From a virus, in the IMG/VR virus record IMGVR_UViG_3300034417_000014, positions 25,847 through 89,846 of that record: a stretch of DNA of 64,000 nucleotides; one strand, given 5' to 3'. The position numbers and the translations under genes are program-made. The notes beneath the pieces are model-generated. The model was given only the letters and a program-made list of their open reading frames with translations. It was not told the DNA's origin and did no database searches. Shown here in pieces: positions 662-52,041 of this stretch (within the stretch, counting starts at the first letter, position 1; each line of letters starts with the position of its first letter).

Positions 662-870
662 AATACTTCCATCACTTTTGTGGCGTGCTTGGGTTGTACA
701 ATGTTGCCGTTGGCATATTAAAACTTCTGCAAGCATACAACACAGCAGAGTTGACAATTGGCATCACTGTGATATGTATGCTTGTCATGGCACTCAACAT
801 ATGGGGATTGATTATCCCATCCCTTAAACGTCTTCAGGCTGCAAATGAATCTACTGAACCTAATACCTAG
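658..870 (+). CDS. small membrane protein
   Basis: ATGA overlap; two hydrophobic segments. Confidence 0.65.
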   Translation: MKYFHHFCGVLGLYNVAVGILKLLQAYNTAELTIGITVICMLVMALNIWGLIIPSLKRLQAANESTEPNT

Positions 871-1120
871 GGCTGTTGCGTTTGTTACAGACTCTCTAGA
901 AGCAATCCCTTGGATTAAGAACCAGCGGCAAATCTTCCGTGCAAATAAGGAACGTGTAGCTAAGGCGCTGTTTGCTTTAGAAGTCGTGATTATGGTTGCA
1001 GTAATATACACCCTTTTCAATCCAATGCAAACTAATTTCCAAGAGCTCTTTTTCTTTTGGGCAATTGTGTTTGGGATTCTTCTAGATACTTACACTAGGT
1101 ATGTGGTTGACATTCGGTAA
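845..1120 (+). CDS. small membrane protein
   Basis: Two hydrophobic segments in the C-terminal half; continuous gene packing. Confidence 0.65.
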   Translation: MNLLNLIPRAVAFVTDSLEAIPWIKNQRQIFRANKERVAKALFALEVVIMVAVIYTLFNPMQTNFQELFFFWAIVFGILLDTYTRYVVDIR

Positions 1121-4377: not shown

Positions 4378-4473
4378 ACAAAATGCAAGCACTTTATGTT
4401 GTGTAAAGTGCTTGCTCTTTCACTTTAGTTCCACTATAATGTTTACACACTAAAGCAAACGGGAACTAAGAAA

Positions 4474-4686
4474 ATGGCACTTAACATTGTAGTAAGCGAA
4501 GCTACTGTCGAGGGCACCCGCACTATTTCGATCAACGGCCAACCTACTGCGTACAAAATGCAACTAGACGAGAAGGGCTGGTGGCTTGTAACATACGGCG
4601 AGGAGTTTGTCGACTACTTTTTGCACTTGCATTGCATTTATTACACAATTGAAATAGACTACACAATTATCCGCAAAATGGGTTGA
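4474..4686 (+). CDS. small hypothetical early protein
   Basis: Promoter element 4412; stop codon lies inside the next -35 box. Confidence 0.8.
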   Translation: MALNIVVSEATVEGTRTISINGQPTAYKMQLDEKGWWLVTYGEEFVDYFLHLHCIYYTIEIDYTIIRKMG

Positions 4687-4742
4687 CATTCCTTTCCACT
4701 TTCGTTATAATGTTTACACACTAAACAAACGGAGTAGTAAAA

Positions 4743-4934
4743 ATGCTAACAGCAGAAGACGGCGCAAAGATGAAAGATCTCAAGGCGCGTGTATTGGCAA
4801 ACAAGCCAGTCTCCGATGTTGAGAAGCAGTGGATCTTGGATAAGCTAAAGCAAGAGAAGTCGCTTGTCAACCCCAAAGTTGTACAAGCTGCGCGCAACAG
4901 TGGCTTCAACGTAGATGGGATACTTGTCAAGTGA
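4743..4934 (+). CDS. small hypothetical early protein
   Basis: Promoter element 4683; GGAG RBS. Confidence 0.8.
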   Translation: MLTAEDGAKMKDLKARVLANKPVSDVEKQWILDKLKQEKSLVNPKVVQAARNSGFNVDGILVK

Positions 4935-5152
4935 AATTACTCGATCCGTTGCTTCCCTTCTTGTCAATACACGGAAACACGTACATTGTCAAGTCTGGCC
5001 ATATTGTTCGGAGCAATGACGTAGACGTTAGCTTCTTTTACGTGGAAGGTCAACAGGTCATTGCATACTTTGAGAACGAGCAGGACGGGGCCTACGAGGA
5101 AGTTATTCACAGTCTAAGCGTAATAAAAGTATTCGAAAGAGTTGACTTTTAG
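4931..5152 (+). CDS. small hypothetical protein
   Basis: GTGA overlap with the previous ORF. Confidence 0.7.
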   Translation: MKLLDPLLPFLSIHGNTYIVKSGHIVRSNDVDVSFFYVEGQQVIAYFENEQDGAYEEVIHSLSVIKVFERVDF

Positions 5153-5201
5153 TTCCACTTCCGCTATTATGTTTACACACTAAACAACTAGGTGCAAGCA
5201 A

Positions 5202-5420
5202 ATGGCGGAATACACTTTAGTTAGACAGCAAAAGAAGAGCAGCGGGTTCTCCGGGTACCTCCTGGAGCATGGGGAACAAGTCGCAGCAGTCACCCGACCA
5301 AACGGAACAGTGCGGGATTATAAAGTCCGGTGGTTCACTGATCGTGCTATAGCACGTTTCCAAACGTATTGCAACTGCCTATCCATCGAAGAAACACTCG
5401 AGGCATTAGAGCCAAAATAG
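5202..5420 (+). CDS. small hypothetical early protein
   Basis: Promoter element 5142; AGGT RBS. Confidence 0.8.
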   Translation: MAEYTLVRQQKKSSGFSGYLLEHGEQVAAVTRPNGTVRDYKVRWFTDRAIARFQTYCNCLSIEETLEALEPK

Positions 5421-5484
5421 TGGTAGACAAGCGGGGGAAACCCCGCTATAATGTTTACATACTAAAGCAAACGGAGCAAAGAAC

Positions 5485-8262: not shown

Positions 8263-8406
8263 ATGAAGATCGAAGCATACGGCGTGAAGGGCATGAAGAG
8301 CAAGCAATGGAGCAAAACCTTTGCAAGTGAAGCAGCAATGGAAGCGTGGTGCGAGAAGAACGATGCGCAAGTCCTGGGCTACAGGGAGGCAGAGCAAAGC
8401 AAGTAA
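8263..8406 (+). CDS. 47 aa early protein (MKIEAYGVKGMKSK...)
   Basis: Promoter element 8202; GGAG RBS before ATG 8263. Confidence 0.8.
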   Translation: MKIEAYGVKGMKSKQWSKTFASEAAMEAWCEKNDAQVLGYREAEQSK

Positions 8407-8465
8407 ATAATGGTAGACTAGCGGGGGAAACCCCGCTATACTGTCTGCACATTAAAGGAGCACAC

Positions 8466-23971: not shown

Positions 23972-26900
23972 TTAGACATTTACTCCAGTTCCTGGTCTGT
24001 CTCTTAAAAATTCAGCTTGTTGTGTAGTAGACATCGCTAAACCGCCAATTGAATTTTCCCAGAATGGAACATCTGCATTTGGAACAAACTGTAAATTATC
24101 ACCAGATGTAACTTTTTTACCTATTGGATATGTAGTGTTTGCAGTTCCGTTTGGATTTCTAGTTGCCGCAATACTTGTTCCGCCAGTGTGTCTAAGAACA
24201 CCTTTTAATATATCTTTAGTGTATTCAACAGGTATCTCTTGTGTAGGATCAGTTGGGTTTGTTTCATATCTAATTACAGATGCGTCGTATTGTATTGCAA
24301 CATATGTAATTCTTTCTCCACCAATCCACACAACTCCTGGATGTCCCATTGTTGGTTTCGGCAACAATGACGCATCCTCAACACAAATCTCCTGCGAGTC
24401 TTCTTCCAATTTTAAGAACAAGTATGTAGAATCCTCGTCACCAATTCTAGTAAATGTTTTTGTGTCTTGTTCAGTAAGGTGCATTTTGAAACTTACTGGA
24501 GACAACTCATACTCTACAAGAATTTTTTGAGACATATTTGGATCCGAATCTTGCACTTGCATGTGATGCTGTGCGTTAAATATCACCATATTTGAATTGT
24601 TAAATATTTTAGTGAACTCAGGTGTGTCATAATTTACATCCATTGTCTGGCCTGCGCCCAACGGTGTTGCTAATACAATCGCTGTAGTTTTATTAGGATA
24701 CACTGCAAGAGTATATTCTACACCAAAGGTATACGTCGTTAATTTCCCATTGACGAATATGCTTATTATGGAATCAGGCACAATGGCAACTGTTGTTAAG
24801 AACGTAGTTTCTGATCCATCGCCAACGAATGAATCCTGTGTTGCCATAGGAGTTTTTGGATAAAACCCTTGCATATACCCGCGATATCTATTCTTCAACG
24901 AAGTTCTTTCATAAGAAGGATTCGTTTGCGCTGCCAAATATGTTAATGTTGGCGTAACAACATAATCCCCTCCAGTGCCAGTATCTTTATTTTGGAATAT
25001 AAAATTAGACACGCCTGTAGTAGTATCGTTCACAACATAAATGCGAACATCTGACAAGCTGGATGGCAATAAGTATTTGCTCTTGTGTTCTTCTGGGGTT
25101 CCGCTGTAGTATGGAAAAATTAACCCAACATCGTTGTCATCCATCCCAGTATAGTTATCCCATTCTTCTCCGTCCCAGCCCGCTTCGTCATCAACAACTG
25201 CTATTGGTTTGCCGTCAACGAATACTACTTGATTAGTAGTGTTTCCGTCATAATGTCTCGCATCGTCAGCACCGTAATATTGTCTTAGTGCGCCAATTCT
25301 ATAAGATACAACAATTGTTGAATCATCAACAGGCACTTCTACAAACGAAAGTACATATTTTCCATCGGCCGACACATTTAAAATCCACTGTGTTGTGCCA
25401 GTTGCATCTTTTTGTGGAATCACAACACCGTCCACAGTAACATGGTCAAGTGACACACCTTGTCCCAAATTTTGCACTAGTACAAATTCAAATTTGACAC
25501 CATCACCAAAGAAAGACTCATTTATTTTTCTTCCATTTGTGTCCACAGTTACAACTACGTTTTCGGAAGTTCTGTAAACTGCAAGTTCATCGGTCATGCC
25601 AATATCGCTTGGAGTAGGAACAAATACACTTCCGTCTAATACATCATTTTCTAACTGAACTTCAAAGTTGTGATCAGTAGTGTAGTGATATTTTATTAAC
25701 ACCGTGTTTCCATATGCAGGTGTAGTTGCTAGAGTAACGTATGTGTACCCTGGTCTTACAGAAGTTGTTGTGCTGACTGCTGCGCCATTGATAGTTGCAG
25801 AATCTACTTCGATCACATCATTGAATCTGTAAGTTGATGTTTCTCCATTAGCAATATTTGTAAAGTCTAAGATTGTTTCTGGACCAACAGATGTCACAAT
25901 GCGAGGAGTTACAATTCTTCTGTCCCATCCTGCAGATGACCATGGCTCTGTATCCCAACCAATAGAAGACAAATACTCAAACCGCTCAGCATCAATAATT
26001 TTTCCGCCGAACATTGCATTGTACTCTACTGAATACTCATAATTAAATGTTTGCAAATCCGCTAACTCTGCAACTGTTGCAGAATTTATTCCTTGTACTG
26101 TTGCGTATGAGGAATAGTTTATTGTGTTGCCTGTCGGGGCAAACGATAGCAAGTTAGTTGTGAGGTCAGTCCTAATGTGCAAATAGCTGTTTGCTGCACC
26201 AGAGTACACTGTAAACTGAGTAACTTTCTCAGGATCTGAAATTATAGATACGCCAGGAACATTCCAGCCGTACGTGTCCCAAGGTGAGCCGCCCCATCCT
26301 GTTTTTGGTGTTCCAGTATGTGCCAAGTCAATATCATAATTAACCACTTTAATATCAGCAGGGTTTGTAATCTTCATATTTACTGAAGTAAATCTTTGCC
26401 CTGTTGAATTATATTGCAATCTCATTTCTTCAAGTGCAGTGTGGGTAAAATTAACACCGGACACAACAGTGATGTTGTTAGACCCGAACGGCGGAATAAC
26501 ATCGAATATCACAATCAATTTTCCAGTTGTGGCATCTTCGTCAGTGTAATATTCATCTCTATCTAATAGACGACCGTTAACATATGCTTTCCACACACTA
26601 GTGATGTCATCAAATACAAACGAATTATTTACTCCGTCTCCAGATTTTGTCTCATCACCAAAGTAAACAAACATGCTCTTATCTACAAAGCCTGGCTGAA
26701 CACTATCGCGTATCACGTATGTGCTGTAATATCTTGGGACATCTTTAGGCGGATATGCAGGATTCAATACTGCATGTGTATATCCATCGGAATCAGTTGT
26801 GTATGCTAACGAGTCCATATCCCATGCTGTGCCAGTTGCATAATCTATCGGCAACGAGTATGAAACACTGTAGTCTCTAATTTTAGTCTGATATGGTTTA

Positions 26901-48286: not shown

Positions 48287-49798
48287 ATGTTCACCAGAAA
48301 AGAAGGTTTCGAAGACCGGTTCAAGAAATTAAAAGCTACTGTAGGTGGCATCAAAGATAACGTCGAGGATAATATTGACGATGTCTCAGATGCCATTACT
48401 GACAAAATCGAAGATACACTCGACGACATTAAAGATGTTGTTTCCGATAAAATTGAAGACATCATTGAAGATAGAATCAGTGATGCTAAAGATGTTATCA
48501 GTGACAAAATCAAAGATAAAATCGAAGACATTCGCGATGTTATTGAAGACATAGAAGGCAAAATTAAGTTTATAATTGTTCGAGTCAAAAATAAATTAGA
48601 AGAATTAGAAGATAAAATCGAAGATGTGAAAGACACGTTAGAAGACGTTGCAGACACCATCGAAGATTTTAAAGATAGAATTGAAGACCGTCGTGAAGAA
48701 CGGAAAGAACGTCGCGAAGATCGACGTGATGAATTAAAACAGAAAGTCAAAATACTGTTTATTCTAAAAAGAAGAGGCGATTATGGCGACCATGAGTCGT
48801 ACAGCAAGCCAGGTGTTTCTTCTGGATTGTGGAATTCTGCTCGTCTTGTTTCAGAGATGCTAACTAAAAATGGTGTTGCTTCTAAAATGGTAGAAGTAGT
48901 TGACAACAACAGCATTGATAGAGAAGTGACCTTATACAAACCAACGCACGTCATTATCGAAGCACTATGGGTTGTACCTAGTAAATTCGACATTTTGTCT
49001 AAACGCCATCCGAAAGTTAAATGGATCATCCGCTTACATAGCGAAACCCCATTCATCGCCAATGAAGGTATGGCGTTCGAGTGGATTAGAGATTATGCAA
49101 AACACCCAAATGTCTTACTTTCGGCGAATGCTGACAGAATGTTAAAAGAAACTAGATTCCTTGTTGCAGAGCAGCGCGGATTAAATAAACAACAAGCGAA
49201 AGACAAAGTGGTATTTTTACCAAATTACTATCTTCCAGAAGATGATAACCCACGCCACGAAAATCCAGACAGTGACATAATTAATGTCGGTTGCTTTGGT
49301 GCAATACGACCGTTAAAAAATCACATGATTCAGGCTGTTGCTGCACTTATGTTTGCTAAAGAGCTTGATAAAAAATTGCACTTCCACATTAACATTGGAA
49401 GAAGTGAAATGAAGGGCACACCAATCCTTAAAAATCTTATCGGTATGTTTGATGGGTTAAAAGAACAAGGACATGTGTTACATTTACACCAATGGATGCC
49501 GCACAGTGAATTCTTAGAAGTAGTTAAAACTATGGACATTGGATTACAAGTATCCTTTACTGAAACGTTTAACATTGTTGCAGCAGACTTAGTTGCTTGC
49601 GGAATACCAACTGTAGTATCTAAAGAAATTAGTTGGATGTTCCCATATTATGCTGACCCTGTATGTTCAGATGACATTGCTAGGAAATTAAATGTTACTT
49701 GGCTCCTAAGAGAAAAATTGCCTTGTGCTAACAAAGTGTTGTTGAAAGACTATGCTGAAAATTCCGAGAAAATCTGGGTGAAATATTTTACTAGCTAA
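48287..49798 (+). CDS. GT-B (GT4-like) glycosyltransferase with an N-terminal acidic helical repeat extension
   Basis: GCFGAIRPLKN and SFTETFNIVAAD...GIPTVVS; first ~150 aa are D/E/K repeats. Confidence 0.8.
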   Translation: MFTRKEGFEDRFKKLKATVGGIKDNVEDNIDDVSDAITDKIEDTLDDIKDVVSDKIEDIIEDRISDAKDVISDKIKDKIEDIRDVIEDIEGKIKFIIVRVKNKLEELEDKIEDVKDTLEDVADTIEDFKDRIEDRREERKERREDRRDELKQKVKILFILKRRGDYGDHESYSKPGVSSGLWNSARLVSEMLTKNGVASKMVEVVDNNSIDREVTLYKPTHVIIEALWVVPSKFDILSKRHPKVKWIIRLHSETPFIANEGMAFEWIRDYAKHPNVLLSANADRMLKETRFLVAEQRGLNKQQAKDKVVFLPNYYLPEDDNPRHENPDSDIINVGCFGAIRPLKNHMIQAVAALMFAKELDKKLHFHINIGRSEMKGTPILKNLIGMFDGLKEQGHVLHLHQWMPHSEFLEVVKTMDIGLQVSFTETFNIVAADLVACGIPTVVSKEISWMFPYYADPVCSDDIARKLNVTWLLREKLPCANKVLLKDYAENSEKIWVKYFTS

Positions 49799-49806
49799 AT
49801 ATCACT

Positions 49807-50220
49807 ATGGACACAGGACATTGGATTTGCAAGTTTGAATTAGACCCCTCGAAGTTTGAGGGGTTTGTTTATAGTATCACTCATACTGAAACTGGAAAGT
49901 TTTATATTGGCCAGAAGAGGTTTAATAGCACTAGACGAAAGAAAGTAAAGTGTAAAGGTGATCCAACTAAAAAGAAAACCTCAGTGATAAAAACAGAAAG
50001 TAACTGGAAAGAATACACAGGCTCTTCTGAAGAACTTAACGGCGATATTTTAAAACTCGGTAAAGATAAGTTCACTTTTGAAATCATTAGTCAGCATAAA
50101 ATGCGAGGCGAAACAAATCGCGCCGAAGCACTGCTACAGCTAAAATTATGTTTAACTGAAGACATTACTATCCACGACGATACTTACAACAAACAGATAC
50201 TGCTCCGCATCAGAAAATAA
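49807..50220 (+). CDS. GIY-YIG family endonuclease
   Basis: GFVYSIT...GKFYIGQK, Y.GSS, FTFEII, conserved E and YN. Confidence 0.85.
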   Translation: MDTGHWICKFELDPSKFEGFVYSITHTETGKFYIGQKRFNSTRRKKVKCKGDPTKKKTSVIKTESNWKEYTGSSEELNGDILKLGKDKFTFEIISQHKMRGETNRAEALLQLKLCLTEDITIHDDTYNKQILLRIRK

Positions 50221-50227
50221 AGTCAAG

Positions 50228-50255
50228 AAAAAAGGCGCCTGATGTGCGCCTTTTT
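50228..50255. terminator. bidirectional intrinsic terminator
   Basis: aaaaaaggcgc-ctgatgt-gcgccttttt. Confidence 0.8.
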
Positions 50256-50434
50256 AGATTAAAACCTTATCACATACTCCGGGAAGTAGCATCAGCCTAC
50301 TTTGGATTTCGAGGAGGGAGAGTCCGCAACTTGTTTTAACAATAATATTTATCAATGTAGTTAATTACCATATTGAAATATTGGTTGAAACCATTTTTTA
50401 CAGATATATTAAAAAGAGCTTGATAAATAGAATG

Positions 50435-51345
50435 CAGGCTGTTATAATAGCTGTTAATAAGTTACATCATATATGGATTTCACAATAATAATAAAAAAGA
50501 AACTACGGGATAACTCTACTGTAGGGACGTATAAGGCACAGAGTATCGGATTTCAAACTATTAATTTCCCCCTCATAAAAAACTTAAAATAAACTTAAAA
50601 TAAAATACAAGCGACCGAAGGCTAAAGAAATAAGGGATTTATACCCGGCTATTGTTAGTAGAAACTAACCCCATTGCACACAGCAATTTACCAATTGCAT
50701 GATGTTCTTGAAGTTGATCTTGGGTGTCGCAGAAAAACATGTAATAATTTAGCACTTTATTACCATGTAATGTTTTTCGAAATGTTTCAGAGCAAGTGCT
50801 CATTTGTTAATCGTGGTAGCACCTACTACCTAGTGCCTGACAGTTTATGTCCTGGGCGCGCAGATAATAACAACAGAATATAGGGATGCTTGTACTAGCG
50901 AGATACTGCTAGAGACTCCTATTAGTAAGTACGTTATAACAATGGTTGTGTCTGAGACGAAAAGATCCTGCTCTGCTGGAAAAAGAATTGGTTAATTAAG
51001 CCTTTTAGCAACAGGAACTTTTAGCAGGATAACCAACGGTTCTGCTGAAAGCTGCAACACTGGAAAGCGTTTTAGGACGTTAGTACACGATAAGTTAATG
51101 GGAAGATGGTGTTCGCCCAGAGCTGTAAGGCTTCACTCGTTTGGTCGCGTGGTACTATACTGAATCAAGTTCAGTTTTTCCTATGACTTTCGCCCCTCGG
51201 GGGCGAAATATCACATGTCCTACCTTAATCAAGTATAACCTTTAAACAAATAATAATTAATCAGTAAATAAAACAAACACTATATGTAACGAGCGACTAA
51301 GCGAAGTTAAAGTATAGTGTTTGTAGTTGAGCGTAGCGAGACTTG
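50435..51345 (+). ncRNA. candidate large structured non-coding RNA or origin-primer transcript
   Basis: No credible ORF; late promoter at 50422; many stems, including long-range 50611-50619/51140-51148; G-U pairs favour the plus strand. Confidence 0.5.
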
Positions 51346-51350
51346 AAGTG

Positions 51351-51821
51351 TTAAACTTTATGATTATATAATTTAACTAATTTCTTATGCCATAATAAGT
51401 TGGATCTGTATGGGCATAATGATTCTAAATGAGCTGTTATAGAAATAATGTTTTTTCCATAATTTGTAAAATTCAAAATGCCAGTGTATTTCTTAAAATG
51501 TATTTGTATAAATGCTAATATTCTAAGTTCTGAATTGCCATCAATTTCCTCTTTAATCCCTTGAGAGTCATGTTGACTTATCCATTTCACTTCTCCTTTA
51601 GCTAACATCACACATGTTTTTATTATGTCTATTGGGAGTTCTTCTATGAACACTGCGCCTGGGTCGTCGCCGATACTTATTGCAGGTAATTTAGTTCTGA
51701 ATTCGCCAGTTAAAAACGGGCTCCATGGAATTTGCTGCGAACTTAATATAAAGCCCGTGTTGAAAATCCAATTGTATTTTATTGGTGTTTCTACTACTGA
51801 TGTTGGTATCAAATTATCCAT
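51351..51821 (-). CDS. hypothetical protein
   Basis: 156 aa ORF coupled to the upstream gene. Confidence 0.7.
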   Translation of the reverse strand: MDNLIPTSVVETPIKYNWIFNTGFILSSQQIPWSPFLTGEFRTKLPAISIGDDPGAVFIEELPIDIIKTCVMLAKGEVKWISQHDSQGIKEEIDGNSELRILAFIQIHFKKYTGILNFTNYGKNIISITAHLESLCPYRSNLLWHKKLVKLYNHKV

Positions 51822-51822
51822 T

Positions 51823-52041
51823 TTACATATACTCTGTTTTGTCGCCTGACTCTTCTTTGTTTTTCTTATTGATTGCGTTGATGATACGTTCTCGCTGATG
51901 AAAGCTCAACGACCAAGCAGTATCAAAGGAAACTGCTCCAGCTGAATATATAGCAATGTCAGTAATTTGCTGTTCTAAGGCTGAAGTTTCCGTTTTAAAT
52001 CTTTCCAATAAATTCCTAATTTCTTCAGGTGTGGCTAACAT
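51823..52041 (-). CDS. baseplate hub / tail assembly protein (gp51-like)
   Basis: AWSLSFHQRE (W.L...ER motif); TAATG overlap with the gp26-like gene. Confidence 0.7.
   Translation of the reverse strand: MLATPEEIRNLLERFKTETSALEQQITDIAIYSAGAVSFDTAWSLSFHQRERIINAINKKNKEESGDKTEYM

Follow-up and report, generated by a model that had tools for sequence, protein, structure and literature searches.

A predicted structured non-coding RNA gene, with relatives in Pseudomonas phage PA5oct, between the gp46 module and the baseplate-hub genes of an uncultured jumbo phage

The window analyzed here is a stretch of viral DNA of 64,000 nucleotides (nt), positions 25,847 to 89,846 of the IMG/VR record IMGVR_UViG_3300034417_000014, and the element under study is the gap between two gene blocks at 50221-51350. 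The record is 89.8 kb long with an estimated completeness of 25%, hence the whole genome should measure roughly 350 kb. The source is an uncultured jumbo phage, of which the window covers a part; its nearest cultured relative is Pseudomonas phage PA5oct (protein identity 60% for gp46 and 44% for the baseplate hub). The genes before the gap are all oriented in the + direction and encode a late sigma factor, gp47, gp46, a protein of 503 amino acids (aa) and a 137-aa GIY-YIG protein; the genes after it, a 156-aa open reading frame (ORF) named o156, a 72-aa ORF named o72 and a T4-type baseplate hub, are all on the - strand, and a large structural gene on the + strand is located beyond these three. 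The GIY-YIG gene (49807-50220) encodes a nuclease domain only (Pfam SegE_GIY-YIG, expectation value (E) 1e-27). Comparisons with related phages indicate that the gap is occupied by an independent gene on the + strand, whose product is a structured non-coding RNA (ncRNA) of about 0.75 kb. This RNA belongs to a small uncatalogued family, which also comprises three copies in PA5oct (A, B and C) and a copy in a second uncultured jumbo phage (contig L229).

The gap of 1130 nt is the longest in the window at an ORF threshold of ≥80 aa, as had been claimed in an earlier note made from the sequence alone. At a threshold of 60 aa, it is split by a 69-aa frame with a TTG start (50674-50883), and both halves remain the two longest gaps of the window.

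The comparison of the gap with the matching PA5oct interval (copy A) using blastn gave two matches in the same order, with E values of 3.6e-5 and 0.005. The alignment of the two sequences contains three blocks, m1, m2 and m3, with 85-92% identity. Copy A, at 75.9 kb in PA5oct, is the positional orthologue of the window element, and a search of the genome with this copy revealed two paralogues, B at 12.9 kb and C at 246.1 kb, with 5'-domain identities of 84% and 83%, respectively. Copy B lies inside the terminal repeat of PA5oct, and hence is present twice, in a 910-nt unannotated gap flanked by two + strand genes, with a further promoter before the next gene. Copy C lies between two - strand genes and within a feature of NC_071039.1 (ncRNA 246116-246734) described as 'putative lncRNA', ncRNA004, 'annotation based on RNA-Seq data'. 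This is the only member of the family with transcript evidence; its share of phage reads was 0.08% in the early, 0.03% in the middle and 0.02% in the late phase (Table 1 in the available part of Lood et al. 2020, PMC7318152). The annotation over copy A consists of four tiny hypothetical coding sequences (CDSs) of 39-50 aa, gp341, gp340, gp339 and gp338 (L002:12043-12855; NC_071039.1 75704-76516). They cover the promoter and the conserved blocks of this copy and are probably mis-annotations of the RNA gene.

The homologue in L229 was obtained from pattern scans and lies at the end of a 19.9-kb IMG/VR contig, next to homologues of the hub (38% identical), o72 and o156, which are oriented on the opposite strand, as in the window. 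The scans of IMG/VR returned 0, 1, 63, 2 and 57 stretches; L229 was singled out among the 57 by the covariance model R1 (see below) and was the only real homologue, the rest being chance matches, among them the single stretch of the second scan, which falls inside a gene. Scans of species genomes returned 0 stretches and three chance matches in coding DNA. A 'distant' blastn search with 50221-51350 found no match among 50,697 phage records, and the L229 element as a query gave only three chance matches of 20-37 nt. The hub protein used as an anchor in IMG/VR retrieved no locus, and none of the gp46-anchored loci (80 from IMG/VR and 80 from metagenomes) carried the m1-m3 motifs, although the two other RNA families described below came to light in them. 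In the cultured jumbo phages XaC1, RsoM2USA and Atu_ph07, model R1 gave weak and unconvincing matches only. Xanthomonas phage XaC1 features a 793-nt unannotated gap (L351:8213-9004, 208922-209713) after gp46 and endonuclease VII and before the hub. The weak R1 match in this gap (8295-8441, + strand) scored 11.7 bits, with E = 0.11 in 15 kb, and the gap may hold another divergent RNA.

The best conserved part of the element is its 5' domain, which folds as a four-way junction (Table 1). The alignment of five 5' domains contains 94 cells, of which 96.8% are paired, and both sides have changed in 6 of the 19 pairs, a result reached by none of 500 shuffles. In a control with the 3' partners shifted by 1-3 columns, only 33-50% of the cells were paired and no compensation was found. 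Helix P1 alone comprises three covarying positions, with the variants GCGAC/GUCGC, GCAGC/GCUGC and GUGGC/GCCAC among the copies. Single-sequence folds of L229 and of PA5oct copies A, B and C led to the same architecture. The covariance model R1 of this domain was built from the window, L229 and PA5oct copy A. It scored 114.9 bits in the window (50604-50745, a training sequence) and 95.4 and 91.5 bits with the unseen PA5oct copies C and B, respectively, and across the 89.8-kb record it detected one copy only. The second-longest stretch of the window with no ORF of ≥80 aa (4378-5454, 1077 nt) contains no copy of the RNA recognizable by R1. The compensating changes among homologues that the earlier note had proposed to look for are thus present, both in the 5' domain and in helix P5 described below, and the G-U pairs, which it had taken to fit the + strand, are seen on that strand in H1, H2 and P5. 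Within the variable loop of the 5' domain, the window contains two overlapping, mutually exclusive hairpins (50674-50707, ATTGC..GCAAT and GCAATT..AATTGC), which occur in the window only.

Table 1. Features of the predicted RNA gene and its surroundings (window coordinates unless a locus is named)
Feature	Position	Strand	Details
Terminator-like GC stem with T runs on either side	50229-50255		10 pairs and T tail on the - strand; a T run also on the + strand; directly behind the GIY-YIG gene
Sigma-70-type promoter	50420-50448	+	TTGATA, 17-nt spacer, TATAAT, TG before the -10 (extended -10); 11 of 12 positions
Predicted transcript, ~760 nt	50455-51215	+	Ends inferred by analogy with PA5oct ncRNA004 (246116-246734)
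5' domain, four-way junction, ~125 nt	50609-50731	+	RNAalifold on three, then five sequences, same fold
Helix P1	50611-50615 with 50726-50730	+	
Hairpin H1	50634-50636 with 50644-50646	+	
Hairpin H2	50654-50658 with 50665-50669	+	Loop UAGAAA (TAGAAA in DNA)
Helix P2	50670-50673 with 50721-50724	+	
Long-range stem	50611-50619 with 51140-51148		8 Watson-Crick pairs and 1 G-U pair
Stem	50732-50740 with 50770-50778		9 Watson-Crick pairs
Conserved block m3, 30 nt	50957-50986	+	ACGAAA-GAT-GCTCTG-GAAAAAGA; same order in the window, PA5oct A, B, C and L229
Helix P5	50965-50972 with 51023-51030	+	8 Watson-Crick pairs; 2 of 8 compensated among three sequences
12-bp hairpin	51018-51051 (51018-51029 with 51040-51051)	+	10 Watson-Crick and 2 G-U pairs; window-specific; competes with P5 for 51023-51029; absent from alignments
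GC-rich hairpin	51188-51208	+	No T tail; probable 3' end or protective stem
Downstream module	51273-51345		Perfect 12-bp AT-rich inverted repeat (51273-51284 with 51313-51324, 12 Watson-Crick pairs), 28-nt loop, then second GAGCG..GCGA motif
AGTTTACGAA-GCGA or GAGCG..GCGA motif sites	Window 51285-51345; L002:13300-13330; L286:2135-2160; fam7 alignment A3, columns 855-885		

Downstream of this domain, block m3 is preserved in all copies, and its 5' half pairs with a segment located 30-66 nt further on. In PA5oct copies A, B and C, the partner forms six pairs 60-66 nt downstream in the common context ACCAAC..CA. The variable letters of this helix, P5, are UU, AA and AU in m3 of the three copies opposite AA, UU and AU, and CC opposite GG in the window. 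The P5 partners were not put in register by MAFFT, and the pairing was counted by script. Taken sequence by sequence, the helix is significant in the window only (4 of 500 shuffles as good, vs. 127-161 of 500 in the others), and therefore the case for P5 rests on its consistent context. The earlier note had listed this pairing as an alternative to the 12-bp hairpin. All eight of its pairs exist, and it is this pairing, not the hairpin, that is conserved. The competing pairings, which had been the basis for the idea of a switch, occur in the window and L229.

Every stem listed in the earlier note is present as written; not all of them are part of the conserved structure. The long-range stem supposed to close a domain of about 540 nt is unconserved, as GCGAC at its 5' end pairs with GTCGC of P1 in all homologues. 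The 9-bp stem at 50732-50778 falls where the alignment of three sequences yields almost no consensus. Of the densely structured region of about 900 nt that had been proposed, the 5' domain and about 70 nt around 50957-51030 are demonstrably conserved, whereas the remainder varies in sequence and length, the variable 3' part of the copies being 300-500 nt long. Four DNA sequencing runs contained only seven short matching contigs (151-191 nt), in which a single substitution (50956 G>A) and a single deletion were seen, too little for covariation. A 188-nt contig from a soil metagenome has three differences over 50940-51058 (the m3/P5 region), whereas the 69 nt preceding 50940 do not resemble the window. 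This may reflect an additional relative in which the m3 region is conserved but the upstream part differs.

The folding energy of 50422-51345 is modestly better than that of shuffled sequences on the + strand (z = -2.06, with 0 of 20 shuffles as good; z = -1.54 and 2 of 20 on the - strand), which agrees with the earlier expectation for the region as a whole, but not for the 5' domain, which folds no better than chance. Being only modestly better than shuffles, the energy is insufficient to support the RNA claim, which is supported by conservation and covariation.

The conservation of the blocks could also be explained with no RNA gene at all, the gap being a decayed coding sequence or a set of micro-ORFs in which short peptides or DNA-binding sites are preserved. 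The four tiny CDSs annotated over PA5oct copy A and the unremarkable energy of the 5' domain in the window are compatible with this explanation, and m3 can be read as a shared peptide, KD-AL-EK-E/D, in one frame of three sequences. However, the stop-to-stop frames over m2 and m3, while containing short shared peptides, vary in length from 12 to 50 aa, lack a consistent start codon and lie in different registers in the copies; the micro-ORF reading was rejected on these grounds. The two letters of m2 that differ between the window and PA5oct copy A are matched by changes 110 nt upstream, and the letter differences in the conserved blocks can be attributed to compensation at distant complementary positions, in P1 for m2 and in P5 for m3. 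In addition, R1, trained on three copies, recognizes the other two with 91-95 bits, and one copy coincides with an ncRNA defined by RNA-seq. An explanation other than an RNA gene is therefore considered quite improbable.

The RNA does not correspond to a catalogued family. No Rfam 15 family was found at the gathering score in the 64-kb window, in agreement with the earlier note, where no family could be assigned; the scan took in GOLLD, ROOL, HEARO, OLE, group I and II introns, RNase P, 6S, tmRNA and self-cleaving ribozymes. At E up to 10, the interval 49500-52000 gave nine sub-threshold matches of at most 26.8 bits, located at the gap edges and in flanking genes, with none inside 50326-51181. 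ARAGORN predicted no tRNA or tmRNA. The window RNA resembles the large ornate RNAs GOLLD (RF01998) and ROOL (RF03087), which phages often carry, in being large, phage-borne and devoid of coding capacity. It differs from them in the lack of an Rfam match up to E = 10, and only about a quarter of it is demonstrably both conserved and structured. According to the available parts of the published work, GOLLD and ROOL form multimers. The closest likeness is to ncRNA004, which shares the 5' four-way junction, block m3, helix P5, the sigma-70 promoter, the 3' GC hairpin and the downstream inverted repeat; however, it is a paralogue at another genome position, and its 3' part cannot be aligned with that of the window RNA. 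The available part of Lood et al. 2020 (PMC7318152) gives no structure, family or function for ncRNA004. Likewise, no structure or family is described for this RNA in the papers found, as far as their text was available.

The element appears to be transcribed from a promoter of its own. The earlier note had placed a late promoter at 50422; the sequence GATAAATA is present there, but lies within the -35 hexamer of a sigma-70-type promoter. The T4-type late promoter consensus is TATAAATA at -10. PA5oct copies A, B and C show TTGACA at the corresponding spot, and no TATAAATA-type motif. The promoter of copy A agrees with the sigma-70 pattern at 12 of 12 positions and includes the TG, while copies B and C contain TTGACA-17-TATAAT and TTGACA-17-TAAACT, respectively. 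An own sigma-70 promoter is found in all four copies with upstream DNA available, the L229 contig being truncated on this side of its element. To judge by these sequences, the conserved promoter is of the early type and of the kind read by the host RNA polymerase, which would transcribe the window RNA early in infection from a predicted start near 50455. The distance from the end of the -10 to P1 is 163 nt in the window, 164 nt in copy A and 55 nt in copy C. The terminator-like hairpin after the GIY-YIG gene and the promoter stand between this gene and the RNA, which makes the latter a separate transcription unit.

The end of the transcript would lie near the GC-rich hairpin at 51188-51208. 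In ncRNA004, the annotated 5' end is about 12 nt after the predicted promoter start and the annotated 3' end about 22 nt beyond the GC hairpin, and GC hairpins of differing sequence occur at the corresponding place in PA5oct A, B and C and in L229. Beyond the hairpin of the copies, an AT-rich spacer is followed by a perfect inverted repeat of 12-19 bp (13-19 bp in PA5oct A, B and C), whose stem sequences are unrelated; the loops are identical over 32 nt in PA5oct copies A and C. In the window, a T run comes after this repeat on the - strand, and the repeat may thus terminate the convergent baseplate operon. A motif of the form AGTTTACGAA-GCGA or GAGCG..GCGA was observed just downstream of this RNA and of the two other RNA families described below, where it falls within or next to long inverted repeats; it may represent a common signal for protein binding or termination.

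The convergent arrangement of the window RNA and the genes o156, o72 and hub, also found in L229, admits a cis-regulatory explanation, in which early transcription starting at 50420 would collide head-on with the late baseplate operon and silence or time it by antisense pairing or transcriptional interference. In PA5oct copy A, where the + strand gene gp337 begins about 380 nt after the hairpin, the variant would be a long leader of this gene. Yet the conserved letters and helices are more than 600 nt away from the end of o156, interference requires no structure, PA5oct copies B and C reside in other gene contexts and gp337 is without a counterpart in the window. Regulation in cis is thus improbable as the role of the element.

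The same locus in related phages is occupied by other RNAs. Jumbo phages of 360-385 kb carry a different structured RNA of about 600 nt, designated here as fam7. Its members are L084 (3676-4231), loci in the range L087-L093 (L087, L088, L089, L091, L092 and L093) and about 30 further IMG/VR contigs among L164-L213; the seven metagenome loci with the most similar gp46 (57-60% identity) are among its carriers. RNAalifold indicated strong covariation in fam7, with compensation in 46 of 128 pairs, and no Rfam match was found for it; 14 of the 50 matches of a fam7 pattern scan (12 distinct sequences) were due to chance. Like the window RNA, fam7 is located on the + strand upstream of the o156-o72-hub genes, which are on the opposite strand, has a similar length and belongs to no Rfam family, but no similarity between the two is detectable in sequence or by models. 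Model R1 found nothing in the fam7 loci. Model R2, of the fam7 central domain, found nothing in the element of the window, L002 and L229, nor in the whole PA5oct genome, and an nhmmer profile of 42 fam7 sequences found nothing at E up to 100 in 5.3 kb comprising the window and PA5oct gap.

Another conserved RNA, of about 360-430 nt, starts precisely at the stop codon of the orthologous GIY-YIG gene in more distant, mostly marine T4-like relatives (L150:10428-10787, L154, L158, L114, L132 and others) and is followed by about 500 nt with no ORF. It has no Rfam match either, and its AAGGTTRGCGGGCC motif is absent from 50221-51350. R2 weakly matches the 5' ends of six of these nuclease-linked RNAs (E 0.007-3.9), which hints at a relationship between them and fam7. 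As R1, R2 and nhmmer show no similarity of the window RNA to these families, it can be regarded as a positional analogue of both, and not as a detectable homologue.

These loci bear on the suggestion of the earlier note that the RNA is a partner of the adjacent small GIY-YIG nuclease. The nuclease gene is located directly upstream in the window, a large marine clade has a different structured RNA starting at the orthologous stop codon, and 110 of 161 related loci contain a homologue of the nuclease after gp46, so the gene is a resident and not a sporadic homing endonuclease. Nevertheless, the complete PA5oct genome possesses three RNA copies and gave no match to the nuclease at E ≤ 0.01, an empty search that proves little, while the two genes of the window are separated by a terminator-like hairpin and the RNA's own promoter. 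No relationship is detectable between the window RNA and the marine nuclease-linked RNA. A partnership with the nuclease is considered very improbable.

The main rival to a trans-acting RNA is a replication-origin module. It presupposes an early, cis-acting transcript that remains bound to the DNA as a hybrid close to its 3' end and primes leading-strand synthesis, the downstream AT-rich tract and long inverted repeat being the unwinding and loading site. ColE1 RNA II and the transcript-primed origins of T4, which combine a promoter with an unwinding element, depend on promoter-driven RNA, and T4 uses several such origins. From what is generally known of these systems, the element is similar to them as a promoter-driven, structured non-coding RNA of 0.5-0.8 kb that occurs, like T4 origins, in several copies per genome; it differs in the absence of a GC-skew signal. 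The copies are dispersed in PA5oct at 12.9, 75.9 and 246.1 kb, the first being doubled via the terminal repeat, and each is a self-contained unit of an early-type promoter, RNA, GC hairpin, AT-rich spacer and perfect inverted repeat. The low abundance of ncRNA004 and the presence of non-homologous structured RNAs at the same locus of related phages, which would fit a job tied to the locus, are also in favor of an origin. On the other hand, the GC-skew has no turning point at the element (the cumulative minimum is at 43-46 kb, where the gene orientation flips), no origin-binding or primosome motif was identified in it, and the conserved 5' four-way junction lies 500-600 nt from the supposed priming site and is unneeded for a T4-type origin. 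An origin is thus unlikely, albeit less so than the other alternatives.

The preferred reading is a stand-alone, trans-acting RNA serving as a scaffold, decoy or regulator, to which we assign a probability of about 0.6. All copies share the 5' four-way junction, m3 with P5 and a variable 3' part ending at the GC hairpin. The invariant unpaired letters of the junction, together with the UAGAAA-type loops found in H2, in the m3 region and in the third hairpin of the PA5oct copies, could make up the surface by which a protein or another RNA recognizes the molecule. The variable 3' part would confer copy-specific specificity, or merely stability.

The undescribed structured RNA postulated in the earlier note is thus supported: it is absent from Rfam, lies on the + strand under a promoter of its own and is conserved with compensating changes in relatives, and a paralogue was detected as an RNA-seq transcript. 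Several points weigh against the preferred reading. The window sequence itself has no transcript evidence, as no RNA run is listed as carrying it; the expression data are limited to one paralogue (ncRNA004) of low abundance in another phage, whose authors called neither copy A nor copy B as an ncRNA. The energy of the 5' domain in the window is matched by 50 of 200 shuffles (z = -0.62), and the 3' two thirds, with the m2-m3 segment and the 3' 200-450 nt, gave almost no consensus structure in RNAalifold. The copies number six in total and represent three phage lineages, a single genome contributing three of them as paralogues; as the copies are few and partly paralogous, the covariation statistics are weak by R-scape standards, and related sequences may exceed the shuffle control. 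Finally, the trans-acting role is inferred only.

A broader conjecture, which we put forward tentatively and consider rather unlikely, is that in T4-like jumbo phages, the locus flanked by the gp46 recombination module and the baseplate-hub operon always holds a large structured RNA, with at least three mutually unrecognizable families alternating there and the unit being multiplied to three or four copies in PA5oct. Such RNAs would perform an essential, locus-tied job, e.g., as RNA-primed origins with a conserved 5' loading platform, or would be modular, with a constant scaffold and a copy-specific 3' effector. If this is true, the job of the locus is done by interchangeable RNAs, which is undescribed for phages.

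As far as the available parts of the literature go, the present analysis is the first to define the family, together with its structure and its occurrence in multiple copies, one member having been published earlier as an RNA-seq peak. What was a single peak, ncRNA004 in PA5oct, becomes a conserved RNA family that occurs in several copies and has a structure open to testing. Since PA5oct is cultivable, has been proposed as a model phage and is a therapy candidate, the function of the RNA can be tested directly. Together with the two other RNA families at the locus, this suggests that large structured RNAs are a regular and unexplored part of T4-like jumbo phages.

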